Shown piece after piece: positions 4,904-58,172 of a DNA stretch of 64,000 nt. Source of the DNA: Pseudomonadota bacterium (GTDB lineage Bacteria > Pseudomonadota > Alphaproteobacteria > Rickettsiales > RGZB01); contig RGZB01000001.1 in assembly GCA_010031735.1 (NCBI GenBank), positions 6,168 to 70,167 on the forward strand, given 5' to 3'. Position 1 is the first letter of the stretch. Every line of letters begins with the position of its first letter. Position numbers and translations under genes: made by a program. Under the pieces are notes generated by a model. The model was given only the letters and a program-made list of their open reading frames with translations. It was not told the origin of the DNA and ran no database searches.

Positions 4904-4904
4904 A

Positions 4905-8111: not shown

Positions 8112-8145
8112 TTTATAGTGTTTCTGTTATATGTAGCTGCGTAAT

Positions 8146-9177
8146 ATGGCAAGAAACAGGCAATTTGTGAACCATAAAACCACTATCCGGCACGATTGGA
8201 AGACTGAAGAAGTGATGGCGCTTTTCGCGCTCCCCTTCAGTGACCTGCTGTTCCGTGCACAGACCACTCACCGCGAATCCTTCCCGGAAGGCGAAGTGCA
8301 ACTCTCGACACTCCTCAGCATAAAGACCGGCGGTTGCGCGGAAAATTGCTCCTATTGCCCGCAGAGCGCGCATTTCGACACCGGTATCAACGCCAGCAAG
8401 CTGATGCCTACCGAGGAAATCCTGAAACATGCGCAGCAGGCAAAAGAGGCGGGTGCCTCGCGTTTCTGCATGGGTGCAGCATGGCGCAGCCCGAAAGACC
8501 GTGATATCCCTCAACTGGCGGAAATCATCACCGGTGTAAAGAATATGGGGCTTGAGACCTGCATGACGCTCGGCATGTTATCGGGCGATCAAGCCCATGC
8601 ACTCAAGGACGCAGGCCTTGATTACTATAACCACAATATCGATACCTCCGAAGAGTTCTATTCCGAGATCATCACCACGCGCAGTTTCAAAGATCGTATC
8701 GATACGCTCGAGAATGTACGCAATTCGGGCATGAAAGTCTGCTGCGGCGGCATCGTCGGCATGGGGGAATCGGTCGAAGACCGCGCAAAGATGCTCATTA
8801 CCCTGGCAAACTTGCCGAAGCACCCAGAGAGCGTGCCGATTAACCGATTGGTTAAGGTCGAAGGAACCCCCTTAGAACACACTAAGGAAGTCGATATTTT
8901 TGACTTTATCCGCACGATTGCAGTCGCTCGCATCGTGATGCCGTGTTCGTATGTCCGTCTATCTGCCGGCCGTGAGGATATGTCGGAAGAAGCGCAGGCA
9001 CTTTGCTTCATGGCAGGTGCGAATTCCATTTTCTACGGGGAAAAACTGCTCACCACCCCGAATCCTATACAAAATCGCGACATGGAGCTGTTTGCGAAAC
9101 TCGGGATCAAGCCGAGCCAATCTGAAAGCACCAGCCATCATATCGAGCAGACGGAACGTGAAGAAGCCCTCGCATAA
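8146..9177 (+). CDS. bioB: biotin synthase
   Basis: Radical-SAM cluster motif [13 protein letters not shown] and N-terminal [22 protein letters not shown]. Confidence 0.95.
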
Positions 9178-10438
9178 TATCCCTGCCTGGCAGGAAAAAG
9201 GCGCCCCACATATCTGGCATCCCTACACGCAGGCGGAGATAGCCCCTACTCCTATCGCTGCTGCTGCGACCCAAGGTTCCGAGATCCACTTAGAAGATGG
9301 CACGGTACTGATCGACGGTATCGCTTCGTGGTGGAGCGCATGCCATGGCTATAACCACCCCGCGATTCTATCTGCCATGGATACACAGCTGAAAACCATG
9401 CCACATGTGATGTTCGCCGGCATCGCACACGCCCCGGCCTATACGCTTGCCGAAAAACTCTCATCCATTGCGCCTAAAGGCTTAAGCCGCGCGTTCTTCT
9501 CAGACTCCGGATCGGTTGCGATCGAAGTCGCCATGAAGATGGCCGTGCAGTATTGGAAGAATCAGGGTAATTCGCAGAAAAACCGCTTCGTTAGTTTCCG
9601 CCACGGCTATCATGGTGATACCATGGGCGCCATGTCTGTCGGTGACCAGGATGGCATGCACAAGATATTCACCCACTACATGCCGATGCAATACACGATC
9701 GACCTGCCGAGCGATGAATACAGTTTCGCGGAGTTCGATGTGCTCTTGGGCGACCTCAAGAAGTCTATCGCGGGCGTCATCATCGAGCCGCTCGTGCAGG
9801 GCGCTGGCGGTCTGAAATTCCATACACCCGATGTTTTGGCCGAGATATACCGTATCGCGAAGAAACATGGCCTCCTCTTCATTGCGGATGAGATAATGAC
9901 CGGGTTCGGACGCACCGGCATGATGTTTGCCTGCAATGAGTCCGGCATTACACCCGATATCCTATGCCTCGGCAAAGCACTTACCGGCGGCGCTATTTCC
10001 CTTGGTGCTACACTTGCAACCGAAGAGATATATGGCAAATTCCTCTCCGATAAACTCGAGAACGCGCTGATGCATGGGCCGACCTATATGGCGAATCCAC
10101 TCGCATGTTCGGCTGCACTCGCATCCCTCACCCTCTTCGAGAAAGAACCACGCCTGAAGCAAGTGGAAGCCATCGAAGCGCAATTAACGGAAGAACTGTT
10201 ACCACTGCAGAAGGCGGATAAGGTTGTGGATGTACGCATCAAAGGGGCTATCGGTGCCGTACAGCTCGAAGGACTCGATTACACCAAGGTACTGGCGCTC
10301 CGCAAACAGTGTTTAGAGAAAGGTGTGTGGCTGCGCCCCTTCGGCGATGTGATCTATACCACGCCGGCCTTCACCATAAACCCCAAAGAGTTGTCGCAGA
10401 TCACGAAAGTCATCCGCGAAGTGGTACATGGGCTTTAG
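9158..10438 (+). CDS. bioA: adenosylmethionine-8-amino-7-oxononanoate aminotransferase
   Basis: Class-III aminotransferase ([20 protein letters not shown]). The tracked ORF start (8951) lies deep inside bioB. An in-frame GTG at 9158 gives a typical 426-aa BioA with a 20-nt overlap. Confidence 0.85.
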
Positions 10439-11493
10439 AGGCACATACGTTCAATAACACCATCAACATCTTCGACGACATCCATATGACCTGCAAGGCC
10501 GTGCTGTTCGGCGAGCGAGATCATCGGGTTCCAGAAGCCTTTTGTCGTACGGCCATTCTTGATATACGACGCATTTACCAGCACGATCGGCTTCTTCTTA
10601 AGGAGCGGATCGTTCTTCTTCTTGAGTTGTAGGAGCACCAATAATTCCTGCACCGTACCCATACCGCCGGGCAGGATCACGAAAGCATTCGATTTCTGGA
10701 TCATGACCTCCATACGCGTGTAGATATCATCGCGCGGCCAGAATTGGTTGAGGCCATCGGGCAGCCCTTCCATCTCGATGATGTGCGGCACGTTCGAACC
10801 ACCGGTCCAGCCACCCGCTTCATAACCACCACGCACCACTTCACCCATGATGCCGGTACGGCCAGCACCCGTGACACAGCCGAAGCCATTCCGCGCGATA
10901 TCCTGACCAATTTTATACCCCATCTTCAGATACTGTTCTTCCTTCGTGCTTGCCGAACAGAAGACGCACACCTTTTTCGAAGGTTCTTTCATGCTTGGAT
11001 CACCCGGTTTGGAGTCCGGTTTCGCACGTTTCTGGTGCGTGCGTACTTTTTCGACTTTCACCGCACCTTCTTTCAATGCCTTCACCACATCCTGCGGCTT
11101 GTTCACGACGGTCAGTATCTCCTGCCAATGCTGGCTTACCGTACCGCGTTCATGCAGATGGCCGAGGAGGTTCAGCCATGAGGTCCAGGACTTATCGGAA
11201 TTCATCATGATGGTGGGTTTGCCGTTCAGGGCCATATCGCCCGTCTGGTAGCCCACGAAAATCGAGGTGCTGTTCAGTACGTCATCGATCGTAGCACCCG
11301 GCAGGAATACGAAGCCGTGCGATTCATCGATCTTACGCTGGATGTTCCACAGGTGAATGGCTTGGTCGCCATTTCCGTTATAGATATTCCAACCTTCAAG
11401 GAAAAGATGATAAAGAATTTCAGCGCGGACTTTGCGGAGTTCTGGGCTATCACTATCCGTAATGGTGCCCGAGAGTCGAATATTTTTAGGCAT
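10435..11493 (-). CDS. LOG / TIGR00730-family protein with a duplicated, degenerate N-terminal LOG-like half
   Basis: The C-terminal half has the canonical LOG motifs (GAGRTGIMG, LPGGMGTVQELL). The N-terminal ~150 aa repeats the fold signature but with FLPGATIDDVL in place of PGGxGTxxE. Confidence 0.7.
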   Translation of the reverse strand: MPKNIRLSGTITDSDSPELRKVRAEILYHLFLEGWNIYNGNGDQAIHLWNIQRKIDESHGFVFLPGATIDDVLNSTSIFVGYQTGDMALNGKPTIMMNSDKSWTSWLNLLGHLHERGTVSQHWQEILTVVNKPQDVVKALKEGAVKVEKVRTHQKRAKPDSKPGDPSMKEPSKKVCVFCSASTKEEQYLKMGYKIGQDIARNGFGCVTGAGRTGIMGEVVRGGYEAGGWTGGSNVPHIIEMEGLPDGLNQFWPRDDIYTRMEVMIQKSNAFVILPGGMGTVQELLVLLQLKKKNDPLLKKKPIVLVNASYIKNGRTTKGFWNPMISLAEQHGLAGHMDVVEDVDGVIERMCL

Positions 11494-11504: not shown

Positions 11505-11897
11505 CTATTTATGCTTCGATTGTACGTGTTTGCGCAGCGTAAATCCACCTAAAACCAGCAAAATCAACGGAAAAAACCATAATATTGCCGTTGACAATTG
11601 CAGGGGTGGTGAAAGCAATATCTCATCGCCGTAACGTTGCTGCATGAAGTCCCTGACCTCTTGGTCGCTCTTGCCTTGTTCGATCTCCTTACGGATGACG
11701 ATACGCATCTCGCGTGCAAGCTCGGCGTTCGAATCATGGATCGATTGTCCACTGCACACCATGCATTTAATCTCATTGAAGAGGGCAACTGCGCGCGATT
11801 CCTGATCGGCATCCGCAAGTTTATCATCAAGCGTGAAAGCAACCACCAGCTGAGGCAGCAAGGCAATTACGAGTATTATAAGCCTAAGGCTTCTCAC
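11505..11897 (-). CDS. ccmH: cytochrome c-type biogenesis protein CcmH
   Basis: CXXC motif KCMVCSGQSI and a C-terminal TM helix. A GTG at 11897 preceded by GGAGAA yields the signal peptide (M)RSLRLIILVIALL. The longest ORF reaches 11966. Confidence 0.75.
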   Translation of the reverse strand: MRSLRLIILVIALLPQLVVAFTLDDKLADADQESRAVALFNEIKCMVCSGQSIHDSNAELAREMRIVIRKEIEQGKSDQEVRDFMQQRYGDEILLSPPLQLSTAILWFFPLILLVLGGFTLRKHVQSKHK

Positions 11898-12435
11898 TCG
11901 TTTTCTCCATGATCTTCTCCATCGACGCATCGGTGATGGCGCCACGCTTGTGGTAGATGATGACACCTTTCTTGTTTATCAGATAACTCTCCGGCATGCC
12001 GACCAAGCCCATCTGAACCATGAACATATTATCCTTATCGAGCAGCACTTCTTTATAAGGATTGCCGTATTTATCCAGCCAGTTGATGGCATCCGCCTGC
12101 TTATCGGACCAATTGATCGCATAGAGCGTGATGTTATGCGACTTGAATTTTTCCTGCGTTTTCGGATCCATCAAATACGCATGCTCTGCAAGACATGTCA
12201 CGCACCAGGAAGCAAACACATTGATAAATACATATTCCCCTTTGAGGTCTTCATTGCGGAAAGATTTGTTGTTCTTAAGTGTATAGAGGGTAAATTGAGG
12301 GATCGTGGTACCTACGAGCGGTGAATTCTCTTCATCCGCGGTCTCTGCCGCGTTCCGATGGTACAAGTGAACCGTGAAGCCAACTGCCAGAAAAAGAAAC
12401 AGAATGAACGGAATAAATTCGATATGTCTCTTCAT
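11884..12435 (-). CDS. ccmG: thiol:disulfide interchange protein CcmG/DsbE
   Basis: TM anchor plus thioredoxin motif ASWCVTC. The start MKRHIEF overlaps the ccmF stop as TAATG. The longest ORF extends to 12519. Confidence 0.85.
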   Translation of the reverse strand: MKRHIEFIPFILFLFLAVGFTVHLYHRNAAETADEENSPLVGTTIPQFTLYTLKNNKSFRNEDLKGEYVFINVFASWCVTCLAEHAYLMDPKTQEKFKSHNITLYAINWSDKQADAINWLDKYGNPYKEVLLDKDNMFMVQMGLVGMPESYLINKKGVIIYHKRGAITDASMEKIMEKTSEKP

Positions 12436-14369
12436 TATTTCTTCTTTAGTGTTTTTACTGTGGCATGACCATAGAGTGAGCATAAAAGCCCGAGAGCTAT
12501 CAAACAACAAGAAAGCCATATCCAGCTTACCATCGGACGATAAAAGAGTTTTACTGCGTGCTTTCCATCACGCATCGGTTCACCGATCACCGCATACACA
12601 TCAGCAAACACGCCATAGTGAAGTGCGGATTCAGTGGTTGTATCTTTCTCGACCGGATAGACCCGCCTTTCAGGATAGAGCGAAGCATAGTGTGAACCTT
12701 CGCTCGATACAGCGAATTCACCGCGTTCGTAAAGGTAGTTCTTCGCCATGCCTTCCGTGACATTCTTCAAGGTAACGGTATAACCCGCAAGCTCCAGATG
12801 CTCCCCTAAGGCTAATTGCCCTTCTGCATCCTTCTCATAGATCGAACAGATCGCAATCGATAGCACCAGGAGTGCCAAACCTGCATGCGCCAACAGCATC
12901 CCAAGGATACGAGGAGGGAAAAACCGTGCGAGCGGTTTGTTGCTCGATGCACGGTATTTCTGCAGGTGCATGTTCGCCATACGGATGAGTGAGCATAACA
13001 ACCAAACGCTCGATGCCACGGCAAAGGATGCAAGCACATGTTTTGCATGTGTCAGGGTGGTCATGAAGGAAAATGCCAGCACCGCCACGATGATGCTTTT
13101 TTGCTCGCGTGCGATCACTTGAGAGAATGCTTCCTGCTTCCACATGACCGAAGGTGCAGCAGCGGCCAGCACGAGCAACGCACAGGCAATCGGATTCACC
13201 AACGTGTTGAAATAGGGAGCACCGACCGACACATGCTGGCCCGTGAAGGTTTCAAGCAGGATGGGATAAATCACGCCCATGAACACCGTCGCGCATAACA
13301 CTACGAGCACGAGGTTATTGATCATGATGGCCCCTTCCCTCGAAACCAATCGGTATGATGCCTTGGACAGGAAATGTCGGCTACGCAGTGAGAAGAGGAA
13401 GAGCGCAAACCCTACGACGATCACCATGATGAGAAGGATGAAGAGACCACGTAGCGGATCGGAGGCAAAACTATGCACCGAACTGAGCACGCCCGAGCGC
13501 ACCAAAAAGAAGCCCGTGAGCGAAAGAGAGAATGTGAGTATGCCGAGGAAGAGTGTCCAGCATTTGAGTGTGCCACGTTTCTCCACCACGAGTAATGCAT
13601 GCACAAAGGCAATCGCAGAGAGCCACGGAAACAACGATGAATTCTCCACCGGATCCCAAAACCAGAAGCCGCCCCAACCGAGTTCACGATACGCCCACCA
13701 ACTCCCCATGCCGATACCGCAGGTGAGAAATGCAAGCCCAAGGAGCGCCCATTTTTTGGTGAAGCTCACCCATTCTGGTGGCATTTTTTGGAGCCATAAC
13801 GCCGCCAGAGACGAAGAAAACACGACCGACATACAGACGTAGCCGGTGTATAAAATCGGCGGGTGTAACGCGAGCCCAATGTCCTGTAGCAAGGGGTTCA
13901 GACCTGCCCCATTGGGAGGCACAGGCCAAATCATTTCGAAAGGATTGGAAGTAAATCTGCTGTATATGACAACAAGAAGCAATATAATATTATTAAATAA
14001 CAATGTATAATATAAAATATCTGACTTAATAAATAATTTATTTACTGTAATCCTATAATTTATATAGGCCAGCATAAAAATAAACATTAAAAATGAACCC
14101 TCATGATTACCCCATGTTCCGGTGATTTTATAGAGGGTTGGCTTTAGGGTGTGCGAGTTATTATAGACTAATAACAATGAAAAATCAGATAGATAAAACG
14201 AATATATCAACCAAAGGAAGGCCACGCTCAGCAGCACGGCAGAAGCTTGTGTACCGATTTTAAGTAACTTTAAGTTATTAATATTCCTATTGTTCAATAC
14301 AATAATAGAGATAACTAAACTTAAAGTCATCAGTGCTGAGTTAAGAAATATAAGCCCTATGTTGATCAT
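12435..14369 (-). CDS. ccmF: cytochrome c heme lyase subunit CcmF
   Basis: 644-aa polytopic protein with WGNHEGS and the WWD motif WWAYRELGWGGFWFWDPVEN. Confidence 0.95.
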   Translation of the reverse strand: MINIGLIFLNSALMTLSLVISIIVLNNRNINNLKLLKIGTQASAVLLSVAFLWLIYSFYLSDFSLLLVYNNSHTLKPTLYKITGTWGNHEGSFLMFIFMLAYINYRITVNKLFIKSDILYYTLLFNNIILLLVVIYSRFTSNPFEMIWPVPPNGAGLNPLLQDIGLALHPPILYTGYVCMSVVFSSSLAALWLQKMPPEWVSFTKKWALLGLAFLTCGIGMGSWWAYRELGWGGFWFWDPVENSSLFPWLSAIAFVHALLVVEKRGTLKCWTLFLGILTFSLSLTGFFLVRSGVLSSVHSFASDPLRGLFILLIMVIVVGFALFLFSLRSRHFLSKASYRLVSREGAIMINNLVLVVLCATVFMGVIYPILLETFTGQHVSVGAPYFNTLVNPIACALLVLAAAAPSVMWKQEAFSQVIAREQKSIIVAVLAFSFMTTLTHAKHVLASFAVASSVWLLCSLIRMANMHLQKYRASSNKPLARFFPPRILGMLLAHAGLALLVLSIAICSIYEKDAEGQLALGEHLELAGYTVTLKNVTEGMAKNYLYERGEFAVSSEGSHYASLYPERRVYPVEKDTTTESALHYGVFADVYAVIGEPMRDGKHAVKLFYRPMVSWIWLSCCLIALGLLCSLYGHATVKTLKKK

Positions 14370-14974: not shown

Positions 14975-15220
14975 ACCATCCTCTGTTCCAGCATCGTTTC
15001 TATAGAAAAACACCAAAAACGCAAGAATTATTGCCAGATGAGAGAGTCGACTACCATATATAGTAAAAAGTCGTAAAAACCCTGTTTTAAAGACGTTATA
15101 GCCTACCCATACGGTTACATATACCCTAAAACCAGAGGTAAGTGGCCGCTGCACTTAACAAATCCTTAACATTTCCTTGGTATGATGGCTTCCATAGCGA
15201 CAGGAATAGGGGAGTAATTT

Positions 15221-16315
15221 ATGCCAAATGTGCCAAATCCAGAGTTCGATTTTAATGGCAATAGTGAGCCGCAGAGGCCATTGCCACCTGGCGTAAATCC
15301 ATTTGATTTCGATGCGTATGATAAAGATCCAGACTCACCTGTGGTGAATCCAGCGGTGTCATCTCCGATTCCGAAACCGATAACTGTCCAACCACCCAAA
15401 ACCGATGCGGATGCAGAAAAACCTATTGTTGCTGCGCCGAAGGCTGAAAAGAAACCTATGTCTACGGCTTCATGGTATGCCGTAACCGGTACCGCACTGA
15501 GTGCAACACTCGGTGGCGCTGTAGGCGCCGGTGTTGGTTTCTTGATCGCAGGTCCTGCAGGCCTTATTCCAGGTTATACGTATGGCACCATCGCGTCTGA
15601 AGCAGTGATCGTGGCTGTGCCAGAAGTACTAATTGCAGTAGAAAGCCTCTCTCGTGCCCTTGAGAAAAATGGCAGCGACATTGGTGCCGTAGAGTGGCTG
15701 GAAGCACGCCGCCAGGAAGTAAATGGTATAGGTAGCGGTATCGTCACGACCATAGGCGAATTAAGAGATATGATCGGTAATGGCCTTCAATTCGTTCGCG
15801 ATGGTGTAGGTACTATCGTTCAAGGCCGTATCGATGGTTTCAAAGAAAACGGAACCGCAGCCGGTGTAGGTATCGGTGTTGTTGCGGGCGTAGGTGGCCT
15901 TCTTACCGGTGGCACCGCAGTTCTTCCCATCGTAGTCGGTGGTGTCGCATTGAAAGCAGCGGATGCACTGCTGCCAGAAGGTTATCAACCGCTGAACTAT
16001 CTATTACGTACGGGTCGCGATCTTGTGGAAGCCGTCGATAACGGCGGTCAGATGATGCTGGAGAAAGAAAAGGACGGTGAAGAGCCGAAGTTACTGCCAA
16101 AACGTTATGAAGAACTTTCAAAAGCAGTAGAGCTCGAGCTAAAAGGCCGTAAAATCAGTGTCGATAAAGATCAATTAAAAGCGCTCGTGGATCCTATCGC
16201 GGCTGAGATCGCAAAAACCTTTCCACAAGTGAAATTCGTGGTCATTCAGGGTGGTGTCATTGCGCCCAACCTCAGCAAATCAAAACGCAAAACGAGCGAC
16301 ATGAGCGTGAAATAA
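15221..16315 (+). CDS. hypothetical membrane protein with a Pro-rich N-terminus and two glycine-zipper hydrophobic blocks
   Basis: 364-aa ORF with no signal peptide. Hydrophobic blocks are GTALSATLGGAVGAGVGFLIAGPAGLIPG and AAGVGIGVVAGVGGLLTGGTAVLPIVVGGV. The C-terminus is basic (SKSKRKTSDMSVK). Confidence 0.6.
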   Translation: MPNVPNPEFDFNGNSEPQRPLPPGVNPFDFDAYDKDPDSPVVNPAVSSPIPKPITVQPPKTDADAEKPIVAAPKAEKKPMSTASWYAVTGTALSATLGGAVGAGVGFLIAGPAGLIPGYTYGTIASEAVIVAVPEVLIAVESLSRALEKNGSDIGAVEWLEARRQEVNGIGSGIVTTIGELRDMIGNGLQFVRDGVGTIVQGRIDGFKENGTAAGVGIGVVAGVGGLLTGGTAVLPIVVGGVALKAADALLPEGYQPLNYLLRTGRDLVEAVDNGGQMMLEKEKDGEEPKLLPKRYEELSKAVELELKGRKISVDKDQLKALVDPIAAEIAKTFPQVKFVVIQGGVIAPNLSKSKRKTSDMSVK

Positions 16316-16335: not shown

Positions 16336-17079
16336 TTGGAAAGGGTCGGTCTTGGTGAAGGTCTCAAAACCGCTATCATGCACCAGCTGGACAAAGGCGG
16401 CATCCCGGGCGCCGATCTAGAAAAGAACGCGGATTCGATCATCCGCTCTCTGGAACAGAATATGATTACTTCCGGCAGGCCACCCGTAGCGGTGATTCAA
16501 GAGTACATGACCTCACTTCAAAAATGGGTAGACCAACAAACCGGTAGAACTACCACCTCTAGCGAAGTAGATGTCGAGCTCGTCGATCCGGCTTCACTCA
16601 ACAGAACCGAAGTAATGGATGCGCCGGGTTCCGGTGTGAAGAAAGCCGGCGCAAAAATGGAAGTCATGACCGGTAAAAGCCTGTCGAATGATGCGTGGGT
16701 TGCACTGCTTTCCGCCGTAACGGAAGGCACGAAAGATAAAAAATTTGATGCCAGTAATAAAAACGTTCCTTATGCGATTGCACAAGCACTCGTACCGGTC
16801 ATCGAACAAAGTCCTAAACTTCAGAATCCGGACTCTTTCGAGAAGCTGATGAAGGCACTGAAGAACGTTTCTATCTATATGACTAAAAGTGCAGAAGACG
16901 AGCGCAACCTCCCACAAAAACTGGCAGGCAAAGTCAGAGAACAGGCAAGTGGTGTTGGTAGAGCAGCAGACACCGAACGCAAGAGGGATGGTGGTTCTGG
17001 CATGAGCCGTGGCGGTGACGCTAGGAAGCAACCGGATGTCAGGAAAAAACCTGACGCGGATGCTACGCAAGCTGACTGA
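16336..17079 (+). CDS. hypothetical protein with a charged, basic C-terminal tail; possibly the C-terminal part of the preceding gene
   Basis: 247-aa ORF called from a TTG with no obvious SD. Its frame is open from 16207 and overlaps the 3' end of the upstream ORF. Confidence 0.45.
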   Translation: MERVGLGEGLKTAIMHQLDKGGIPGADLEKNADSIIRSLEQNMITSGRPPVAVIQEYMTSLQKWVDQQTGRTTTSSEVDVELVDPASLNRTEVMDAPGSGVKKAGAKMEVMTGKSLSNDAWVALLSAVTEGTKDKKFDASNKNVPYAIAQALVPVIEQSPKLQNPDSFEKLMKALKNVSIYMTKSAEDERNLPQKLAGKVREQASGVGRAADTERKRDGGSGMSRGGDARKQPDVRKKPDADATQAD

Positions 17080-22660: not shown

Positions 22661-23461
22661 ATGATGCCCATGAATCGTTCATTGGCGTTATTTCTGGCTG
22701 TTTTCTGCCTTCCACTGGCCGCCCACGCGCAGTTTAAACTGCCTACCGGGTACGATTTCAGCAAACTTCCACCCATGGGTAGTGGTAAGCCCGACCCTAA
22801 CGCTTTCCGTGGGGATATCCCACTCCGTGTGTTCGAAGTGCCACCGGATGTGCGTGCGTTTGTCGGTAAAGAGGAAACCTGTGCGAATTACATCCTGAAC
22901 CGCCGCAATTTTAAAGATAACCCTGCCGTTATGAAAGACCTGGATGGCAGTTTCACTACCATACAGTGCGACCAACTGCCCTGCGAGCGGAACCTCATTC
23001 TCGACAAACATAGAAGCGAACCGGATATACTGAAATTCATCTATACCTATACCGATGGTTCCGTACCTAATTGGACGCCAGGTGGCACGGGTCAGTACTA
23101 TGCTGACAACCTGTGCAAAGTACCGCTCGATCCGAACCAGCCGATGCCGATCAACCCCTACAGCACGGATTACGTGAAACGTACCACGCCGAAGGATGGT
23201 GAGAAGATCGATGATGAACTCGATATCACTGCTGCACAATTAAATGAAGTGCTGAACCGTATCGAGAAATTACCGCCAGAATCGGTAACCGACGATATCG
23301 TGAATAAGATCGTGCAGGATGTCAAAGCCGGCCGTGATTCCAAACTGCCGACTGCGCCAGTAGAAGAGCCAGCGCAACCCGGAGTACCGAAGAATGACGG
23401 CGGTGCGAATGGTCCGGCAGCGCCTGCTCCAGCTCCAGCGCCTGCGGCACCCACAAACTAA
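22661..23461 (+). CDS. secreted hypothetical protein with a Pro/Ala-rich tail
   Basis: Signal peptide MNRSLALFLAVFCLPLAAHA, 4 mature cysteines, and the C-terminal tail GPAAPAPAPAPAAPTN. I recognise no family. Confidence 0.6.
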   Translation: MMPMNRSLALFLAVFCLPLAAHAQFKLPTGYDFSKLPPMGSGKPDPNAFRGDIPLRVFEVPPDVRAFVGKEETCANYILNRRNFKDNPAVMKDLDGSFTTIQCDQLPCERNLILDKHRSEPDILKFIYTYTDGSVPNWTPGGTGQYYADNLCKVPLDPNQPMPINPYSTDYVKRTTPKDGEKIDDELDITAAQLNEVLNRIEKLPPESVTDDIVNKIVQDVKAGRDSKLPTAPVEEPAQPGVPKNDGGANGPAAPAPAPAPAAPTN

Positions 23462-31206: not shown

Positions 31207-34200
31207 TTAAGTCGCGCCGCTGTTCGCGCCTGAACCGGAACCCGAGCCTGAAGAACTACCCGAGCCGGAGCTAGAACCAGAACCACTACCAGAGCCAGAC
31301 GCGCTACCGGAACCCGAGCCTGAAGCACTACCCGATCCGCTACCGGAGGAGCTGCCAGAACCGCTGCCCGAGCCTGAAGAACTACCCGAGCCGCTGCCGG
31401 AACCCGAGCTAGAACCAGAACCACTGCCGGAGCCAGACGAGCTACCGGAACCTGATCCCGAGCCGCTACCGGAACCTGAGCCCGAACCGCTGCCGGAGCC
31501 GGAGCCTGAGCCACTACCGGAACCCGAACCAGAACCGCTACCGGAGCCCGAGCCACTACCGGAACCAGAACCAGAACCGCTGCCGGAGCCTGAACCACTG
31601 CCAGAACCTGAAGCGCTACCTGAGCCGCTGCCAGAGCTACTACCAGATCCACCCGACGAGCCCGAAGAACCACTACCACCCGAGCCACCGCCTGAACCAC
31701 CGCCGGAGCCGCCACCAGAACTACCACCGCTGCCACCCGATGAACCAGATGCACCACTACCACCCGAACCACCACCGGAACTGCCACTGCTGCCTGGACC
31801 ACCGCCACCCGCACCCCAGCCGCCGCTCCAATCTATCGGCGTGCCTTGCCATTGAGGGTTGATGTTAAGATCATAACCTGGGAATGTCTCAACGCTCGAG
31901 GTACCATTCATATCTTCCTCTTCCGCCGATTTACCAAGGCTACCGATCACACTTGTAGAAGGAATATTGTTGCCCCTGAGTTTCGGCATTGGGTCACATG
32001 CCCCTGCTGCCTTCTCAATGAAGCCAAAGACATCTTCTTCACGATAATAGGTACCTTGGTAAGGCTCTTCAAAACTCTGTACCGGCTTCGTCGGATCCTG
32101 GCCGATACGCGCTGGCGCACTGCAATAGAATGTCGTGGCATTACCCGTTGGGAGTGTACCCGTAAAGGTTTCCATATCGATCGGGTCGTTTACAGAACCC
32201 GGGCCACTATCCGGCATATCCCAGTTCGGACGATACACTTTAATACGTTTCCAGTTACGCTCATAGCACACTGCGATATCCGGGTTGTCGCACTTCCTGC
32301 CACGTGTGACAGCGGCATTCTCAAGCCAGATATAACGTTCGGTGGTCACATCCCAACGATCGGTGTTACCACACGTATCTTGGTATTTACCCCAGTTCTT
32401 CTCGGACACCTTTACCCACGGCTGGCTGCCTTCTTTCCATTCACATGGCTTTTCTGGGTTATAGCCTGACGGATTACTATCCGGCGCCGGCGGATTGGAA
32501 TCGAAGTCATAACCTTGTGCCGACCAACCTTCCGGCAGGATCTTATCAAGCAAGCCCGGACCGGTTTGATCCACGTCGGTGGTCTCGAAACGACCCATAT
32601 GATCCGGATCGCCTTCATAATAATGCTTGAAGCCGGTTTCCTCGACATAAGCGATATGGTTGATATACCCTGCGTCTTTCGGTGTGCCATCCGCATTACA
32701 TTTATCCGGCGGATTACCAAGTTCCTGGCACGACTGACCACCCTTCTCGGCTGGATCGTCATCCGCTTCCTTGATCTCACTATCGTACATGATGAAGTCA
32801 CCCGCACGGGCACATTTCAGGCCCTGATAGCCTTTCGATTTATAGCGCACACCCGTCGTCACGCCGCGCATCGTGAATTGGTTATTATATTTCCAGTTGA
32901 CCCACAATTTAGAGTTCGGGTTTGCATTCGGGGCAAAGTTCGGGCCCGGATAACCACGCCATACCAGCGGCCAGACGATGGTATTCGTATAGGTGGTGTC
33001 ATCTGAGGCATTGATTGGATCCTCGTTACCCACCATGAAGAAGCGGAAGCCGCCGCGACGCAGTACGTAATCAATTGCAGAACCAGACTTGAACGTTTTT
33101 TCGTAGTCGCACATGCAGTTCAGGTTGAACCAACGGCCACAACGCGCCTGATATAGCATCATTTCATACCAGCCGCCGATACCACAACCACGCGGCCCTT
33201 CGATCGCTTCCGCGACACGTTCATCTGGACCTTTTTTGAAGGAATCTTTCGCAATATTATAGGATGCCTCGTAACGTTGTTGCGAAATACCATTGTCGTC
33301 TTCGTAATCCGTCTGTTTCATATTGAGCGGAGGTGTCGGGAACGCGATCGTCGGCGCCATGAAAGGTGCCTTATCGAACGGGAATGCAAGCTGGTTGTTC
33401 GGGATGGATTTCACCGTCATCGCCAGATAACTTTGCGGCTCTTCGAACATCCAGCGGAGATTATATTTCTTATTGTCGGAACGATCGAGCAATGCCAGCT
33501 CTGACGGCACCGGCGTCGGCGACATATCACGCAGCAGAATCGGACATGCGATGTTACGTGCTTCGTAGAATGCACGTTTCCAGCGCTGCAGATTCGGTGT
33601 GATCATCGTGTCTTTGCAGATCTGCCATTCGTTCCACGGTGTGCTCGGATTATCTCTCGGGCAATGGCAGGAGAAGTCAGGTGCAGCGGTGAAAAATGCA
33701 TCTGTGAAGCGCACATCGAAACGCAATACGCGGTAGTTCTGCATATCGATATCTTCATGCCTGTTGCCGAATTGATCGATGAACTTGCTGCAGCGTTTTG
33801 GATAATTGAAGAAATTCGCCAGGTCTTTACCACCCGCCGGGAGTGAAGAACCATCGCGGAAATAAATCTTCGCCGGATCTTCCGTATCGTTCGGGAAGGA
33901 GACGGCTTCACGCGGGCTATAAGGGTTACAGATCTCGTTGATACCTTCCGGCATCACGACTTCTCTGTTCGGTTTATTGGTCTGTAGTTCGCCATATACC
34001 AATTTGAAGTTCTTGATCGGCGCTTGGAAATCCGTAAAACGCACTTTGTTCTTTGCATATTCCGGACCATACATCTGTTCTGCAGTCGGGCGTTTTTTAT
34101 CCACCGTCTCGATGATAGCACCGGTATCCGCCATGATGATCGGCGGTTTATCAAAGCTACCCGGGATTACGGTAATGCCGGTATCCTGGCCTTGGTCACC

Positions 34201-35394
34201 GATATAAAGTACGTCGTGGCCATTAAATTGAGGCTGCTCGTTTAATTTAAGCGCAGGGTCGCAACCGATTTCGTGTTCATACCCATATACGGTATGCATC
34301 GGATAATAGATCGTCGGCGGGAAGAAGGGCGTGTAGTTCCCTTTTGCATATTTACGGTCGAATTTCTCATAATAATCTTGTGGGAATTGGCCACTATAGG
34401 TTGCACAACCACGGATGCCAAAATACAGCTCACCCGAGGTGCTGGAACCTGAGCCATTGATCTTCTGGAATTTGAGATTCGGCGGAGAACCCGGCGGCGG
34501 ACTATATTCGTTCACCTTTAAACGGCACACATCTTCTTCTGGTTTTAATTTGCCACGGAAGAAGAAGTTAAGAGAGTCATATAATTCGTTACGGATCAGC
34601 GGAACCTCTACAAGATAGCAGTCGTTCAATGTAATATATTCTGGACGCACGCGCGGCGGCTCCGGTTTCATGACGACACGGCCACACATCCTGTGGCGGT
34701 GCGTACGCTCCGCGAGATAGAGTTCCACGCATTGCTGGATCTTACGCATGTGGCCTGGGTTATAATAGACATCACGATCCGTGGGTTCCGGATCGGTAAG
34801 GTACCAGTTTTTATTGATGTTATTTTCGTCGCCGAGTGAATTACTTTTGAGCGGTGTGTAGTGTTCACGCGGGCCTGGCATACTGATATATTTCTTACCA
34901 CCCGTGATCGCACCGATCACAGTCCCTACCGTACCTGAGCCTGGGGGCGGCGAATCATCGTTGTTCCTGTAGTTAATGAAGTAGCTGCAAAAACGGTTCA
35001 GATCGTCGATATTATCATCGCGCGCACACGTATAGACTTTCTCACGCTCAGACCAGTTGCTGAGGTAGTTGAACACCGGACGGTAACAGAACGGATCGAG
35101 AACTAAACGTTCATCATCCGGCAACATAGAGCTGTTCGGATCGGACGGGTCTTTGGGTTTGGTGATACGTTTGCGCGGGTCATAGACACCGGTGATGTCT
35201 TCGTAGACCGGGTCGGCACCATAATAGACTTTACTGACACCCGGAACGGTGCGGTCGCCTTTCAGTGCGGGATCGGTGGCTTCAGGACCTGCGGCGATAG
35301 CATTATAAGGCTGAGACACAGACAGACCGGAAGCCAGCCCCATCATAATAAGGAGCACCAGCGTCAGACCGTTTTTACGTACAAATCTAAACAT
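31207..35394 (-). CDS. giant secreted cysteine-rich protein with a C-terminal Gly/Ser low-complexity tail (unknown family)
   Basis: Uninterrupted 1395-aa ORF with signal peptide [29 protein letters not shown] counted 28 Cys in residues 1-1190. It is rich in P/Y/N/D. Residues ~1191-1395 are almost pure G/S. Confidence 0.85.
31210..31824 (-). repeat. Gly/Ser-coding low-complexity region (6-nt periodicity with ~120-nt internal duplications)
   Basis: The translation is GSGSGS.. with [10 protein letters not shown] units. For example, ggaacccgagcctgaagaactacccgagccg recurs near 31243 and 31365. Codons are mixed rather than a perfect microsatellite. Confidence 0.9.
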
Positions 35395-35476
35395 CCATAC
35401 CGTGTTGTAGTATTGTCCCAGCTAAGCAATTATTCTTTAATAAATACTGTGTTAATTTGTAAAATTAAAGACAAGT

Positions 35477-35504
35477 TTGCACAGTATGCTATGTAAGCTA
35501 TAAT
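35477..35504 (+). promoter_or_regulatory. candidate sigma70-type promoter for the VirB8/VirB9-like pair
   Basis: TTGCAC (35477-35482), 16-nt spacer, TATAAT (35499-35504) in the AT-rich divergent intergenic region. Confidence 0.4.
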
Positions 35505-35516
35505 ACCACATGCGAG

Positions 35517-35531
35517 TTAACAATAAGTTAA
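35517..35531. promoter_or_regulatory. CtrA-box-like motif TTAA-N7-TTAA (TTAA-N7-TTAAC on the minus strand)
   Basis: The sequence is TTAACAATAAGTTAA. The reverse complement of 35516-35531 is TTAACTTATTGTTAAC. It lies 26 nt upstream of the virB8-like start and ~120 nt upstream of the giant gene. Confidence 0.4.
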
Positions 35532-35556
35532 TAAACGGACAATTTTAGATAAATTT

Positions 35557-36303
35557 GTGACGAAATTGCACCTCACCAGCACCCCTGAAGTCAGTCAGGA
35601 AATCACGCGGAATATCCAGTCGAAACAATACTTTTCGGATGCCGTGGACTGGTATATGGACAAGTATGTTTACCCCGTTACGCAGCGTACCTTCCTCGCC
35701 ATCGTCACCGTCGTATCCTTCATCACCGCCGTTGTAGCCATCATCATACTGGTGAGTCTACTGCCTTTGAGCGAACGCGTGCCCCTTGCCGTCTCTGTCG
35801 GCTCCCGCGTGGATGAATATACCGGGGTCAAATATATCGGTAAGCAGGAGGAGGATTCCAACGACTCCGTGGTGAAATACCTCACCGGCCGTTATATCAA
35901 GATGCGCGAAAGCTACGATTTCGAGAACTTAAAGAACATCATCGAATATGTGCGTTACTATACGGAGCCGGCTGACTTCCAGAACTATAACACCTTCATG
36001 AGCACCGAAACGAATCCGAACAGCCCGATTCTGGTGTATAGAAACCACACCAAACGCTCAATCGAAATAATTGACGTCGTCAAGATCAGTCGTGAGGAAG
36101 CAGGTATCACAACACCAGGTGTACAGCGGATTGTAGCGAGTTTTAAGGTAACTGAAAAAGGCCTGGGACAAGAAAAAACCAGTTTATGGAAAGCACGCGT
36201 TGATGTACATTTCTCTGATGTGGTCTATTATAAAGACACGAAGAAATTTGCTCCTTTGGATTTCAAAGTGATACATTACGAAGCAAAGCAGGTTGAAGGA
36301 TGA
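35557..36303 (+). CDS. VirB8/TrbF-like type IV secretion inner-membrane protein
   Basis: Bitopic layout of ~45 aa cytoplasmic, one TM (FLAIVTVVSFITAVVAIIILVSLL), then a ~180-aa periplasmic domain with VKYLTGRYIKMRESYD, resembling the VirB8 NTF2-like domain. The start is GTG and is uncertain. Confidence 0.6.
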   Translation: MTKLHLTSTPEVSQEITRNIQSKQYFSDAVDWYMDKYVYPVTQRTFLAIVTVVSFITAVVAIIILVSLLPLSERVPLAVSVGSRVDEYTGVKYIGKQEEDSNDSVVKYLTGRYIKMRESYDFENLKNIIEYVRYYTEPADFQNYNTFMSTETNPNSPILVYRNHTKRSIEIIDVVKISREEAGITTPGVQRIVASFKVTEKGLGQEKTSLWKARVDVHFSDVVYYKDTKKFAPLDFKVIHYEAKQVEG

Positions 36304-37091
36304 AACGACACTTTCTAGCTCTCACTACCGCATCTGTGCTCGCACTGACCCTTCCCTATGCAGCACATGCCCTGCAAGAAGCAACACCGCTCGCGATCGA
36401 CAAACGTCTGCGTACACTCGTCTATGATCCCAACGAAGTCTATAAATTCGTCGGCCATTATAAATATCAATCCAGTATCGAACTTTCTGCTGAGGAAGAA
36501 GTCGTCACCATCTCCATGGGCGATTCGCTCGCATGGCAAGTAACGCCAAGTGGTAACCGCATCTTCTTAAAACCGATCGAGCCGGATGCGACCACGAACA
36601 TGACGGTCATCACCAATAAACGTATTTACCACTTTGAACTGTATGGACAAGAAGCACAAGGGATCCGCGATGAAGACATGGTCTTCCAGGCCCGCTTCCA
36701 GTACGCCGACGACCCTTCAAGCAGGGAAATCCAACGGTTCTCGACCGATGATTTCCCGGATATCGAAAACGAGCCAGGGAAGTTCAACTTCAATTACACC
36801 ATCTCCGGGTCTGAATATATCTCACCGCTCAAAATCTTCGATGACGGCGAATTCACCTACTTCCAATTCAAGAACAAGAATGCGGAACTCCCGGCTTTCT
36901 TCGTAGTCGACTCCGAAGGCAAAGAAGCCGCGATCAACTACCGTATGCAAGGCGACTATCTGGTGGTCGAACGAGTGTCGAGTCAATTCACGCTCAGGAA
37001 TGGCTCTGACATCGCCTGCGTGTTCAACGAAGTACTGCCACTTCGCTCTGCACCGCCGAAACCGAAGCGTAAGTTCCTCGGCCTCTTCTAG
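36300..37091 (+). CDS. VirB9/TrbG/CagX-like type IV secretion outer-membrane-complex protein
   Basis: Signal peptide. N-domain: RLRTLVYDPNEVYKFVGHYKYQSSIELSAEEEVVTISMGDSLAWQV..NRIFLKP..TTNMTVITNKRIYHFEL. C-domain: NYTISG..PLKIFDDGEFTYFQF..PAFFVVDSEGKEAAINYRMQGDYLVVERVSSQFTLRNG. ATGA overlap with the upstream gene. Confidence 0.8.
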   Translation: MKRHFLALTTASVLALTLPYAAHALQEATPLAIDKRLRTLVYDPNEVYKFVGHYKYQSSIELSAEEEVVTISMGDSLAWQVTPSGNRIFLKPIEPDATTNMTVITNKRIYHFELYGQEAQGIRDEDMVFQARFQYADDPSSREIQRFSTDDFPDIENEPGKFNFNYTISGSEYISPLKIFDDGEFTYFQFKNKNAELPAFFVVDSEGKEAAINYRMQGDYLVVERVSSQFTLRNGSDIACVFNEVLPLRSAPPKPKRKFLGLF

Positions 37092-37113: not shown

Positions 37114-37139
37114 TTGAGGATTCAGAGACGGATCCTCAA
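37114..37139 (+). terminator. hairpin after the virB9-like gene (possible terminator / ilvB leader element)
   Basis: TTGAGGAT, a 10-nt loop, then ATCCTCAA. There is no clean T-run afterwards, so intrinsic terminator function is uncertain. Confidence 0.3.
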
Positions 37140-44050: not shown

Positions 44051-44533
44051 TTATGCCTTCTTCACCGCCTCGATGAATTCTTTGATAAGTGCAGGGTCTT
44101 TCACCCCCGGAGAAGATTCAATGCTGGAAGACACATCTACCATCTTTGCGCCACTCACCCGTATCGCCTCGGCTACGTTTGTAGCGTTGAGTCCGCCCGA
44201 AAGCAACCATGGCGATGTGATCCTGCGGTTTTTTATCAGGTTCCAATCGAATGCAAGGCCGTTACCGCCCGGGAGTGCTGATTCCGGTGCGCGTGCATCG
44301 AACAGCATCATGTCGGCGACCTTACTGTATTTACCCCATTCGGAGACATCGTCTGCCGAGCGTACCTTGAATGCTTTGATAATCGGGATACTGAACGATG
44401 CACGGATATCGCGCACACGTTCCGGCGTTTCACTGCCATGCAACTGGATATAATCCGGGCGGAACACAGCGAGGATATCCCTGATCTGTGCATCCGTAGG
44501 ATCCACCATCACCGCTACTTTCTTGATACCCAC
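44051..44533 (-). CDS. trpF: phosphoribosylanthranilate isomerase, N-terminally truncated (possible pseudogene)
   Basis: 160 aa matching TrpF from about beta-3 onward (QLHGSETPE.., GGNGLAFDW, LSGGLNATNV, VDVSSSIESSPGVKD). The KICG(I/L)T / GFVF N-terminal ~40 aa is absent, and an in-frame stop lies 14 codons upstream of the GTG start. Confidence 0.7.
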   Translation of the reverse strand: MGIKKVAVMVDPTDAQIRDILAVFRPDYIQLHGSETPERVRDIRASFSIPIIKAFKVRSADDVSEWGKYSKVADMMLFDARAPESALPGGNGLAFDWNLIKNRRITSPWLLSGGLNATNVAEAIRVSGAKMVDVSSSIESSPGVKDPALIKEFIEAVKKA

Positions 44534-54622: not shown

Positions 54623-54637
54623 TTAATAAAGTGTTAA
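54623..54637. promoter_or_regulatory. CtrA-box-like motif TTAA-N7-TTAA in the fliI/ctrA divergent region
   Basis: TTAATAAAGTGTTAA, ~75 nt upstream of the ctrA ATG (54711). Confidence 0.45.
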
Positions 54638-54710
54638 TATTTAGAACGTACACCAGGTAGGTATAGTACAGTTAATCCGCAGGTACAACGTGTAAGTGGG
54701 GAGTAAGGGG

Positions 54711-55460
54711 ATGAGGGTATTATTGGTTGAGGACGATCCGTCCACCGCGCGCTCGATTGAGTTAGCGCTTGCTGCTGAAGGTATCGTTTGCGATACCGCA
54801 AACTTAGGCGAAGAAGGCCTTGAGATCGGCCAATTATACGACTACGACATCATTATCTTAGACATGATGCTCCCGGATATGGATGGATTTGAAGTTCTCC
54901 GTCGTTTCCGTGCAAAGAAAATCAAAACGCCGATCCTGATTCTCTCAGGGCTTGGCACTTCCGACAATAAAATCAAAGGCCTCGGCATCGGTGCAGATGA
55001 CTATGTAACCAAACCGTTTAATAAAGGTGAACTGGTTGCACGTATCCAAGCGATCGTCCGCCGTTCCAAAGGCCACTCTGAATCAATTATTAAAACCGGC
55101 AAATTGACGGTGAACCTGGATGAACGCTCGGTCTTCATCACCGAAGACCAAATCCATCTTACCAGCAAAGAATACAGTATCTTAGAGCTGCTTTCGCTCA
55201 GGAAAGGTACGCCGATCACGAAAGAGATGTTCCTTAACCATTTATATGGCGGTATCGATGAACCGGAACTGAAAATCATCGACGTTTTCGTATGCAAGCT
55301 CCGTAAAAAGCTGATGGACGCTTCGGGTGGTGAAAACTACATCGAGACTCTCTGGGGCCGTGGCTATATCATGCGCGACCTTGAGCCGAAGGAGGAGCCA
55401 AAAGCTAAGAAGCCTGCAAAAAAGCCGGCAGCAAATAACGCTTCCTTCGCGGAAGCGTAA
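54711..55460 (+). CDS. ctrA: cell-cycle response regulator CtrA (OmpR family)
   Basis: MRVLLVEDD.., receiver Asp in [13 protein letters not shown], and a winged-helix C-terminus ([31 protein letters not shown]). The start is set at the ATG preceded by GTAAGGGG. Confidence 0.9.
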
Positions 55461-56887: not shown

Positions 56888-57466
56888 TTAGTGCTTCATG
56901 CCTTTGTCAGGAATAAAGAGACCTTTGACGCGGCCACCCTGGCCACCGGAAGAACCACCGAAGAGTTGGCTTTTACCGGTTTTCATTTCATATACGAGCT
57001 TGTTACCCTTAAGCACGTTCTTCTCCTTGGTGAGCACCACGTTCTGCTCAAGCGTCACGAGTGCCTTCTCTACATCGTAGAGTCCTTTTTCTGATTGCGC
57101 GGTTTCACCTGCCGTCTTCAGAAATACGTTTCCTTCGACCAGGATCTTAGATACAGAATTCGAACCACCCGGGCTCATCCCTGAGGCTGGTGCCGCTGCT
57201 TTCTTCTTCGCATCCTTTGCACCTTTGGGTGCCGTTGAATCGCCACCACGATAATAGACCGTCATACGGTTAGACTTCAGGTTGATGTTGCCCTGAATGG
57301 CTTCCACGTTGCCTTCGAATACCGCGACCTTATCCGCCTGCACTACTTTGAGACTATCTGCCGTGATCTCGACCGGCTTATCCGAATCTTGCGGCGAAAG
57401 CGCAATCTGGGCTACTGCTAGCACCGGAAAAAGTACAAGGATGAGGGAAAGGAAAAAACGTTTCAT
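56888..57466 (-). CDS. lptA: LPS transport periplasmic protein LptA (OstA-like)
   Basis: Signal peptide and an OstA beta-jellyroll pattern (ITADSLKVVQADKVAVFEGNVEAIQGN..L.SNRMTVYY). Confidence 0.75.
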   Translation of the reverse strand: MKRFFLSLILVLFPVLAVAQIALSPQDSDKPVEITADSLKVVQADKVAVFEGNVEAIQGNINLKSNRMTVYYRGGDSTAPKGAKDAKKKAAAPASGMSPGGSNSVSKILVEGNVFLKTAGETAQSEKGLYDVEKALVTLEQNVVLTKEKNVLKGNKLVYEMKTGKSQLFGGSSGGQGGRVKGLFIPDKGMKH

Positions 57467-57467
57467 A

Positions 57468-58172
57468 TCATTTACTCATATAGATGGTTACTTTTACAGG
57501 CCCCGTGAAATAAATCACATTGCCGCGTTCTTCTGCACGGAAACCGGTGGCATCAAGCGTACCCGCATCACCCTGGATCTTCACCGTGCTTTGACTGAGA
57601 GCCTCGCCGGATTCCATATCGGCAGCCACCGCGTCCGTATGCATTTCATAGCCGTTATTGAGAAATACATTCACCCCTCCTGCGAGGAGCACCTTCTTCT
57701 CCTTCATCTTATAGGTGGCAGATTTGGAGTTAAGCGAAATCCAACTGCCGTCTTTCATCATCACATCACCCGATGGGGTATCCAGCAACAGATTTTCTGG
57801 ATCCAGTTGCGTTGCTGATTCTGCAATAATCGTGAAAGGCTGGTCGTTCTTATCAACCCCATGGAAGCGCGGCCGCATCATTTTCGGCTTTTCGTTTTCT
57901 TCGCCTTTATCCTTGGCATCAGAGATCGCCATCTGGATGCGGCGTTCTTCCGGTGCCGTGAAGGGCCAGATGATCAGCACCGCTACCAGCATAAGTGCCG
58001 TGATGCCGATCAGGTATTTGAATTTATTCACGATACCGGAACGGCGCCATAAGTAGCGACCGCGGCTTTGCTCCGCGTTACTCATCCACGCATCGAAATG
58101 GGATTCTTTTTTAACGGACTCAGATGATTCCGCCGCCGCCTCGGATACATGCTCAGTCGTATCTTGGATCAC
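57468..58172 (-). CDS. lptC: LPS export protein LptC
   Basis: One N-terminal TM helix followed by a beta-rich periplasmic domain. It sits between kdsD and lptA, as in other proteobacteria. Confidence 0.65.
   Translation of the reverse strand: MIQDTTEHVSEAAAESSESVKKESHFDAWMSNAEQSRGRYLWRRSGIVNKFKYLIGITALMLVAVLIIWPFTAPEERRIQMAISDAKDKGEENEKPKMMRPRFHGVDKNDQPFTIIAESATQLDPENLLLDTPSGDVMMKDGSWISLNSKSATYKMKEKKVLLAGGVNVFLNNGYEMHTDAVAADMESGEALSQSTVKIQGDAGTLDATGFRAEERGNVIYFTGPVKVTIYMSK

Follow-up and report, generated by a model that had tools for sequence, protein, structure and literature searches.

In a 64,000-nt stretch of contig RGZB01000001.1 (GCA_010031735.1, positions 6,168-70,167 of the forward strand; hereafter the window, whose first letter is position 1), a virB8-virB9 gene pair is transcribed divergently from a gene for a very large exported protein, here called the giant, and this adjacency was found to be conserved among relatives. 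The giant gene (31207-35394, minus strand) is the longest open reading frame (ORF) of the window, with 1395 aa versus 882 aa for the runner-up, MutS, and it belongs to a family of 1000-3600-aa proteins without annotation. The virB8 homolog (35557-36303, plus strand) encodes a bitopic, RvhB8-II-like protein of 248 aa, and the virB9 homolog (36300-37091, plus strand) an RvhB9-I-like protein of 263 aa with a signal peptide and two domains. The giant gene and virB8 are separated by an AT-rich divergent promoter region of 162 bp (35395-35556), with 29% GC versus about 51% for the whole window. The divergent transcription, the AT-rich spacer and the size of the giant had been described in an earlier reading made from the letters (hereafter the sequence-only reading) and all of them were confirmed. 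The best explanation, which we hold with about even confidence, would be that the pair belongs to a scattered rvh type IV secretion system (T4SS) of a little-reduced, flagellated, prototrophic-looking Rickettsiales-like alphaproteobacterium, and that the giant is a machine-associated, VirB1-like wall hydrolase or envelope partner of that system.

The neighbourhood of the giant was surveyed by scanning metagenomes with a core peptide pattern alone, independently of the virB genes, and 12 loci were returned. Eight of these giants start beside a divergent virB8(-virB9), three loci were uninformative (the gene ran off the contig end or the contig was too short) and in one (L031; loci of relatives are given L numbers) no pair was present in the 3.4 kb available upstream. 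Context look-ups of four more distant family members placed all four beside the pair; two further look-ups fell on contigs shorter than 2 kb and were kept out of the count. The giant is thus divergent from virB8-virB9 in 12 of 13 informative contexts (8 from the scan and 4 from the look-ups). Giant and pair are always divergent across a short AT-rich spacer, and the trio loci span GC contents of 39-58% and VirB9 identities down to 43%, many of them with different outer neighbours. Coincidental adjacency, one of three options left by the sequence-only reading, is therefore rejected, and the co-occurrence of giant homologs with a virB8/virB9 pair in related genomes, which that reading had proposed as a check, was found. 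Counted from the side of the pair, a giant lies within 10 kb in only 4 of 22 genome loci. The two counts (12/13 and 4/22) indicate an asymmetric dependence, in which the giant is almost always with the pair and the pair is often without an adjacent giant. The pairing is a direct observation; the function proposed for the giant below is read from sequence features and stays conditional.

The two small genes encode a genuine VirB8 and a full-length, two-domain VirB9. Both memberships, which the sequence-only reading had left to profile hidden Markov model searches, came out above cutoff: VirB8 scored 71.6 bits with Pfam PF04335 (cutoff 23.2), its residues 29-243 aligning on profile positions 2-210 of 213, and VirB9 scored 235.2 bits with TIGR02781 (cutoff 217.7) and 215.4 bits with Pfam CagX, PF03524 (cutoff 34.2). 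The bitopic layout attributed to VirB8 also held, with a short cytoplasmic N-terminus, a lone transmembrane (TM) segment at about residues 45-67 and a periplasmic domain, and so did the overlap of the virB8 stop and the virB9 start (ATGA), which points to translational coupling. The signal peptide at the N-terminus of VirB9 ends AHA/LQE. Residues 14-249 of this protein align to TrwF of R388, a VirB9 homolog, and both VirB9 domains are therefore present; residues 158-220 align to the C-terminal domains of CagX and TraO. The nearest VirB9 relatives, at 53-71% identity, are encoded on environmental contigs and in Rickettsiales-labelled metagenome-assembled genomes (MAGs). Across loci VirB9 is 43-69% identical, and VirB8 only 21-46%.

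VirB8 matched VirB8 structures of the PDB at 3.8e-7 to 8e-3, the best being RvhB8-II of R. typhi (4O3V, 3.8e-7). The NPXG dimer-interface motif reads NPNS in the window protein, and its Gly is missing in 31 of 31 related VirB8 proteins. As a canonical, RvhB8-I-like VirB8 the protein falls short, with no NPXG and 37.9 bits against NF010439 (cutoff 188). The degenerate motif and the low NF010439 score fit the divergent RvhB8-II type (PMC4676284). Two observations on VirB8 gene models are added here. In the public record for the identical protein (ENA contig L001) virB8 is called 33 codons later (215 aa, start at 35656 instead of 35557), and a GTG start at 35557 is favoured by the conservation of residues 11-33 of the longer ORF in relatives. 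In L027 the VirB8 partner of VirB9 (6476-7990) has 504 aa, with Pfam VirB8 on residues 253-449 only and an N-terminal extension of about 250 residues.

Each of the 22 genome loci that VirB9 retrieved from Rickettsiales-labelled MAGs (the scan returned a single locus per genome) has the pair alone among housekeeping genes, and the pair is isolated also in a further metagenomic contig and in the complete genome of a Stachyamoeba endosymbiont (L004, L029). The neighbours of the isolated pair in relatives are ilvBHC, gpsA-nadA, leuS-hemH or aroB/aroK. The presence of virB10, virB11 or virD4 after virB9 in relatives was considered and rejected; gpsA/nadA, leuS/hemH, an ABC transporter and similar housekeeping genes are found there instead. 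In the window itself, as had been noticed from the letters, no T4SS gene besides virB8 and virB9 was found among the approximately 45 ORFs of at least 150 aa that were scanned, a scan that left out 56888-59744 and smaller ORFs and that small virB2, virB3 and virB7 genes could escape. The other rvh genes presumably lie elsewhere in the genome of this organism; an rvh genome is expected to have duplicated rvhB4, rvhB8 and rvhB9, multicopy rvhB6, rvhB10, rvhB11 and rvhD4, and to lack virB5. In several of the Rickettsiales MAGs (cluster c2, L016-L027) the leucyl-tRNA synthetase encoded directly after virB9 is unusually long (840-1100 aa), and in L024 (10980-14156) a transglutaminase-core Pfam match (2.6e-8) is inserted at residues 400-503 of this enzyme.

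An arrangement of this kind is known. In Rickettsia and Neorickettsia rvhB8-II and rvhB9-I form a distinct operon, and rvhB10, rvhB11 and rvhD4 are accompanied by rvhB8-I and rvhB9-II; of the two VirB9 proteins, RvhB9-I is the conserved one of full length and is taken to be the one that works in the full rvh machine, where it would form the core complex with VirB10 and VirB7, RvhB8-II is fast-evolving with a degenerate NPXG motif, and both the function of the rvh-II paralogs and the reason for the rvh duplication are stated to be unknown (PMC4676284). The window pair, located between the giant gene and ilvB, is a separate unit of the same type, away from rvhB10, rvhB11 and rvhD4, and resembles the published one (PMC2653234, PMC4676284) in joining a fast-evolving VirB8 paralog of degenerate NPXG, whose best solved-structure match is RvhB8-II, to a well conserved full-length VirB9. 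It differs in its host, which is GC-rich (51%), flagellated and biosynthetically competent, in the order virB8 then virB9 with ATGA coupling, in the mostly kept Asn-Pro of the motif (NPxS), and in the conserved divergent giant gene beside it, none being reported for classical Rickettsiales in PMC2653234 and PMC4676284. The assignment of the window pair to an rvhB8-II/rvhB9-I-type unit of a scattered Rickettsiales rvh T4SS, which had been another of the three options, is supported by family membership, by the Rickettsiales MAG relatives, by the isolation of the pair in 22 of 22 loci and by the published unit (PMC4676284). One refutation named by the sequence-only reading was that the genes prove to be ordinary scattered paralogs of a complete canonical T4SS encoded elsewhere; since the pair is isolated in all relatives examined and such a unit has been published, its isolation is ordinary in this clade and already known biology.

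The giant was found to carry the signal peptide, the 28 cysteines and the Gly/Ser tail of about 205 aa that had been read from its letters. The Sec-type signal peptide (residues 1-34, 35293-35394, minus strand, as are all parts of the gene; predicted cleavage after AIA) is the sole hydrophobic window, and no TM-like window was found elsewhere in the protein; at least 10 of 14 homologous giants examined have an N-terminal signal-like segment. The cysteines of the window giant all lie within residues 103-1133, and the homologous giants contain 28-128 of them. The signal peptides and the high cysteine numbers point to an oxidising extracytoplasmic location. The signal peptide is followed by an N-terminal Cys-rich region (residues 35-714, 33253-35292) that is conserved among the closer giants only, with 28-37% identity and 14 invariant Cys in an alignment of 7 giants; this region had no Pfam match, and a profile of the N-terminal 685 residues gave none among PDB sequences. 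The conserved core (residues 715-1065, 32200-33252), delimited by coverage profile and column conservation, contains two long inserts. The part of it that is shared across the family according to the coverage profile comprises residues ~725-870 and ~990-1060, with a variable insert between them. Behind the core lies a module recognised by a motif present in related giants, C...G-x-C-D-P-[PM]-x3-R (residues ~1088-1145, motif at 1133; 31960-32133), and the protein ends in the Gly/Ser tail (residues 1190-1395, 31210-31827), whose 206 residues are 94.7% Gly+Ser. This tail is specific to the lineage of the window, other giants having 10-35% Gly+Ser and Cys-rich C-termini. Its coding sequence is no clean microsatellite; it holds numerous imperfect repeats that overlap one another (periods 18-84, 63-80% matches) and use mixed codons, which suggests selected composition more than recent slippage.

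According to the sequence-only reading the giant had no family signature. This stands for Pfam and NCBIfam, which gave no match on the window giant other than a compositional ClfB match to the tail; it does not stand for the protein as a whole, which has many relatives and a recognisable conserved core. An exhaustive HMMER search returned 108 cluster representatives at E<=1e-3, mostly of 1000-3600 aa and with the shared core, and the giants at the same position in L002 and L005 are 36% and 30% identical to that of the window over about 1200 aa. Public records describe the family as 'hypothetical protein' only. In a word-indexed homolog search the full-length giant gave one spurious Streptomyces match, apparently from the Gly/Ser tail, and the tail-less giant gave no match, although family members are present in that collection; the family was found through synteny and exhaustive HMMER, and the empty word-indexed search is not equal to orphan status. 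The giant family, its CHAP/papain-like core and the lineage-specific nature of the tail had all escaped the sequence-only reading.

The post-core module undergoes fission and fusion across lineages. In L036, L037, L039 and L044 the giant ends right after the core, and a separate small protein, encoded immediately downstream of the giant and provided with its own signal peptide, carries the C...CDP[PM]...R module. This pattern indicates that the parts act together outside the cytoplasm. Other large or small ORFs were also seen beside giants. L033 has a giant-family member (60-5564) followed by two very large ORFs in the same orientation (5568-11453, 1961 aa; 11579-14080, >834 aa), with the conserved core in neither of them. 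Downstream of the largest giants (2575-3520 aa) a family of small, 'CC'-rich signal-peptide proteins with 26-36% mutual identity is encoded (L034, 12178-13014; L035, 13571-14920; L045, 18347-19186). Their 'CC' motif style resembles that of the Cys-rich repeats which the L031 giant has fused at its C-terminus, with no sequence homology detected.

The core of the giant looks like a CHAP/papain-type domain, as judged from motifs and models, although membership of the CHAP family falls short of the cutoff. Column conservation over 89 sequences gave C760 in 87, H913 in 55, N1000 in 77 and G1002 in all 89, and the near-invariant positions are W742, E744, Y748, Q749, C760, G1002, D1006, C1008, C1035 and C1043. 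A candidate triad (C760, H913, E998/N1000) is fully present in the window giant, and E998/N1000 are largely conserved in the family. The order of motifs is CHAP-like: Cys, GD strand, H-x-A-Y-V, E-x-N-x-G. Pfam CHAP (PF05257) matched 9 of 23 core segments of the family (best E 1.4e-5, 25.9 bits, cutoff 26), and one core segment matched a cysteine-proteinase-fold family. Some giant relatives also contain recognised wall-hydrolase or papain-clan domains, namely Peptidase_M23, Peptidase_C39_2 or, in one distant family member, SLT, with a faint NlpC/P60 match in the adjacent ORF; no SLT domain was found by Pfam in the window giant. A core profile gave no match among PDB sequences. The remote-homology and structure check suggested earlier had a divided outcome. 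The model of the window core yielded nothing, and a compact homolog, modelled at pLDDT 79.6, had weak Foldseek matches (E 0.09-0.7), of which 11 of the top 15 are CHAP-type amidases (the endolysins Ly7917 and PlyGRCS; the amidase domains of Gsp and trypanothione amidase) and another is Tae2, a papain-fold amidase effector of the type VI secretion system (T6SS). From these data the giant core would probably be a divergent peptidoglycan hydrolase domain.

In the preferred explanation the rvhB8-II/rvhB9-I-type bicistronic unit would belong to the scattered rvh T4SS, and the giant, a Sec-exported, disulfide-rich, multi-module envelope protein with a divergent CHAP/papain-like peptidoglycan hydrolase domain as core, would be an evolutionarily conserved partner of the VirB8/VirB9 pair. 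Most likely it would act as a machine-associated cell-wall remodelling or spacing factor, that is, in a VirB1-like role filled by another enzyme family on a giant scaffold, and the divergent VirB8 paralog, VirB9 or both would provide its docking site in the periplasm. Giant and pair would be expressed from the shared divergent promoter, with its CtrA box. VirB1 contacts VirB8-VirB11 (PMC2653234; reference 55 in PMC4676284), and by analogy a physical interaction of the giant with VirB8/VirB9 may be expected.

The giant may thus work like VirB1 while standing outside the VirB1 family. As with VirB1-type hydrolases, it is exported, looks like a wall hydrolase and is genetically tied to VirB8/VirB9, which VirB1 binds. 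Gram-positive conjugation systems use hydrolases that combine SLT and CHAP, namely TraG (pIP501) and PrgK (pCF10). With these and the VirB1-type enzymes the family shares the CHAP-like core and, in one member, SLT; a low-complexity C-terminal part is found in VirB1* and in the window giant too. In contrast, the window giant lacks SLT, its CHAP similarity is sub-threshold, and it is 5-15 times larger than VirB1 and very Cys-rich, with a large conserved N-terminal region without assigned fold.

Several results weigh against the preferred explanation. The CHAP matches are all sub-threshold and cover the C-terminal half of the profile only (positions ~27-81 of 81), and neither the window giant nor its own core segment had any Pfam match, CHAP included. 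The AlphaFold model built for the window core, inserts included (pLDDT 70.6), found no Foldseek match in the PDB or BFVD, and the Foldseek E-values of the compact homolog are weak (0.09 at best). Of the family members, 38% lack the candidate catalytic His. A length of 1400-3500 aa is far larger than a VirB1-like enzyme needs. In 18 of 22 genome loci the pair has no giant within 10 kb, and the pair therefore needs no adjacent giant. Lastly, several trio loci share the murU...ilvB chromosomal position, which indicates that part of the adjacency reflects vertical inheritance.

If the giant is a wall-remodelling factor or a surface structure, it would bring a new class of component into the rvh system, and its core would define a new divergent CHAP/papain-like domain family of about 100 sequence clusters. 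The head-to-head arrangement of the giant family with the rvhB8-II-type pair in environmental relatives offers a concrete, testable partner for an unexplained paralog and a lead on why Rickettsia-like bacteria keep duplicate parts of a secretion machine. A giant with either role would also bear on the debate over whether the ancestral rvh of free-living Rickettsiales served to kill bacteria or to interact with hosts (PMC9352585, PMC11077975). No mention of the giant family, of its CHAP-like core or of the near-obligate pairing with the rvhB8-II/rvhB9-I-type unit was found in PMC4676284, PMC11077975, PMC9352585 or PMC2653234.

The giant could instead be an antibacterial, peptidoglycan-degrading toxin that is taken by Sec to the periplasm and then outward by the rvh T4SS, in two steps as with pertussis toxin, its gene being kept beside virB8/virB9 for co-expression. 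Bacterial killing by rvh with peptidoglycan-targeting effectors has been proposed for basal Rickettsiales (PMC9352585, PMC11077975), and the wall-hydrolase-type domains seen here recall both the effectors of the Xanthomonas X-T4SS (cited in PMC9352585) and T6SS amidases such as Tae2. The CHAP-like core, the M23 or SLT domains added in some members, the presence of Tae2 among the structural matches of the core and the variable C-termini of the giants, as in polymorphic toxins, would all suit a toxin. However, no conserved immunity-like gene accompanies the giant. Reading the downstream neighbours as immunity genes was rejected, because no downstream ORF is conserved across lineages (in the window murU is convergent, 36 bp after the giant's stop) and the small signal-peptide ORFs found elsewhere are fissioned giant modules that other lineages encode in fused form. 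Both this fission/fusion pattern and the lack of an immunity gene weigh against a toxin. Furthermore, the conserved domain is central in many members and not a C-terminal warhead, and the conserved partners of the giant are structural T4SS genes. To our knowledge, Sec signal peptides such as that of the giant are not typical of VirD4-dependent T4SS effectors. Taking both sides together, we regard a toxin as unlikely.

A bolder version of the partnership would have the second rvh paralog set exist to serve the giant. RvhB8-II and RvhB9-I would then be a dedicated dock, forming with the giant a discrete sub-assembly (a module for breaching the wall or for a surface structure, or else an envelope machine complete in itself) that was ancestral in free-living Rickettsiales and was lost or relocated on host restriction, leaving rvhB8-II orphaned. 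This joint claim is put forward tentatively and seems to us rather doubtful as a whole.

Less probable still is a self-contained envelope module made up of VirB8-II, VirB9-I and the giant, which would work independently of the other T4SS parts, for instance to anchor or export the giant as a surface fibre or adhesin. The three genes stay together from locus to locus and no other T4SS gene is ever adjacent, the giant is large and Cys-rich with a low-complexity tail, the rvh-II paralogs are stated to be of unknown function (PMC4676284), and rvh lacks a VirB5 adhesin (PMC2653234). On the other hand, the window VirB9 is of the conserved full-length type, thought to form the core complex with VirB10 and VirB7 (PMC4676284), which weighs against a stand-alone module, and in most lineages no giant lies next to the pair. 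A module exporting or anchoring through VirB8 and VirB9 only, the third option of the sequence-only reading, is disfavoured because RvhB9-I is regarded as the VirB9 that functions in the full rvh machine. We also know of no case in which VirB9 alone forms an outer-membrane channel.

That the adjacency is functionally meaningless, an ancestral order left by vertical inheritance with the giant as an unrelated cell-wall or surface protein, is highly improbable: the order murU/amgK - giant - virB8-virB9 - ilvBHC does recur in the window, L002, L007, L009 and L032, and partly in L034, L036 and L037, but the trio is retained through rearrangements that changed both outer flanks (L005, L011, L030, L035, L039, L041, L042, L044, L045, L047), over the ranges of VirB9 identity and GC given above and with the same divergent orientation, short spacer and near-constant pairing, which weighs against coincidence.

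Returning to the shared promoter of the preferred explanation, the 162-bp spacer contains a sigma-70-like site (TTTGCA-17-TATAAT, 35476-35504, plus strand; a consensus match only) and an exact match to the CtrA box, TTAACAATAAGTTAA (35517-35531, plus strand), 26-40 nt upstream of the virB8 start; the box is defined as TTAA-N7-TTAA (PMC6847485). Exact boxes number three in the 64 kb versus 0.67 expected, and all three are just upstream of genes, namely ctrA, virB8 and one unannotated ORF. In the 12 giant/virB8 intergenic regions five exact boxes were found versus 0.70 expected, and seven of these loci have a box, with no more than one mismatch, 40-61 nt upstream of virB8. The window encodes CtrA itself, the gene at 54696-55460 being a CtrA equivalog (394 bits, cutoff 350). 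These boxes suggest that the giant/virB8-virB9 unit may be under CtrA control, and with it under cell-cycle or developmental control. As for the other two exact boxes, that at 54623-54637 is 59 nt upstream of the ctrA start, consistent with autoregulation, and that at 15155-15169 is 52 nt upstream of the unannotated ORF 15221-16315.

Downstream of virB9, after a gap of 143 bp, lie ilvB, ilvH and ilvC, as had been stated; they are 74-83% identical to the L002 genes with TPP-enzyme, ACT/ALS_ss_C and KARI Pfam domains. An 8-bp inverted repeat read from the sequence 3' of virB9 (TTGAGGAT-N10-ATCCTCAA, 37114-37139, plus strand) has no T-run and may mark the end of the operon ahead of ilvB; a terminator scan made no call at this repeat. 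The gene order histidine kinase-tsaE-amgK-murU-giant-virB8-virB9-ilvBHC is common to the window and its three closest genomes. The approximately 45 other ORFs scanned in the window are housekeeping genes, with functions that include biotin, cytochrome c maturation (ccm), mutS, malic enzyme, ahcY, a PAS histidine kinase, tsaE, amgK-like and murU-like genes, trpFBA, rpsA, cmk, aroA, fliI and ctrA. Basal Rickettsiales of the free-living type have larger genomes, higher GC, flagella, amino-acid biosynthesis and an rvh T4SS with duplications (PMC9352585, PMC11077975), and the content of the window (ccm, bio, trp, ilv, fliI, ctrA, 51% GC) fits such a bacterium carrying rvh (PMC9352585).

A tRNA scan and an Rfam scan of the window gave no match. 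Four of its ORFs, 15221-16315, 16336-17079 and 22661-23461 (plus strand; 364, 247 and 266 aa) and 60981-61463 (minus strand; 160 aa), had no NCBIfam match, and the first three had no Pfam match either; the first two are in tandem, behind the CtrA box mentioned above. The trpF ORF (44051-44533, minus strand) has 160 aa and matches positions 51-192 of the PRAI profile only, whereas the syntenic gene of relatives has 210-213 aa. Stop codons are present in the frames upstream of it, which may reflect a frameshift, an assembly error or a truncated gene.

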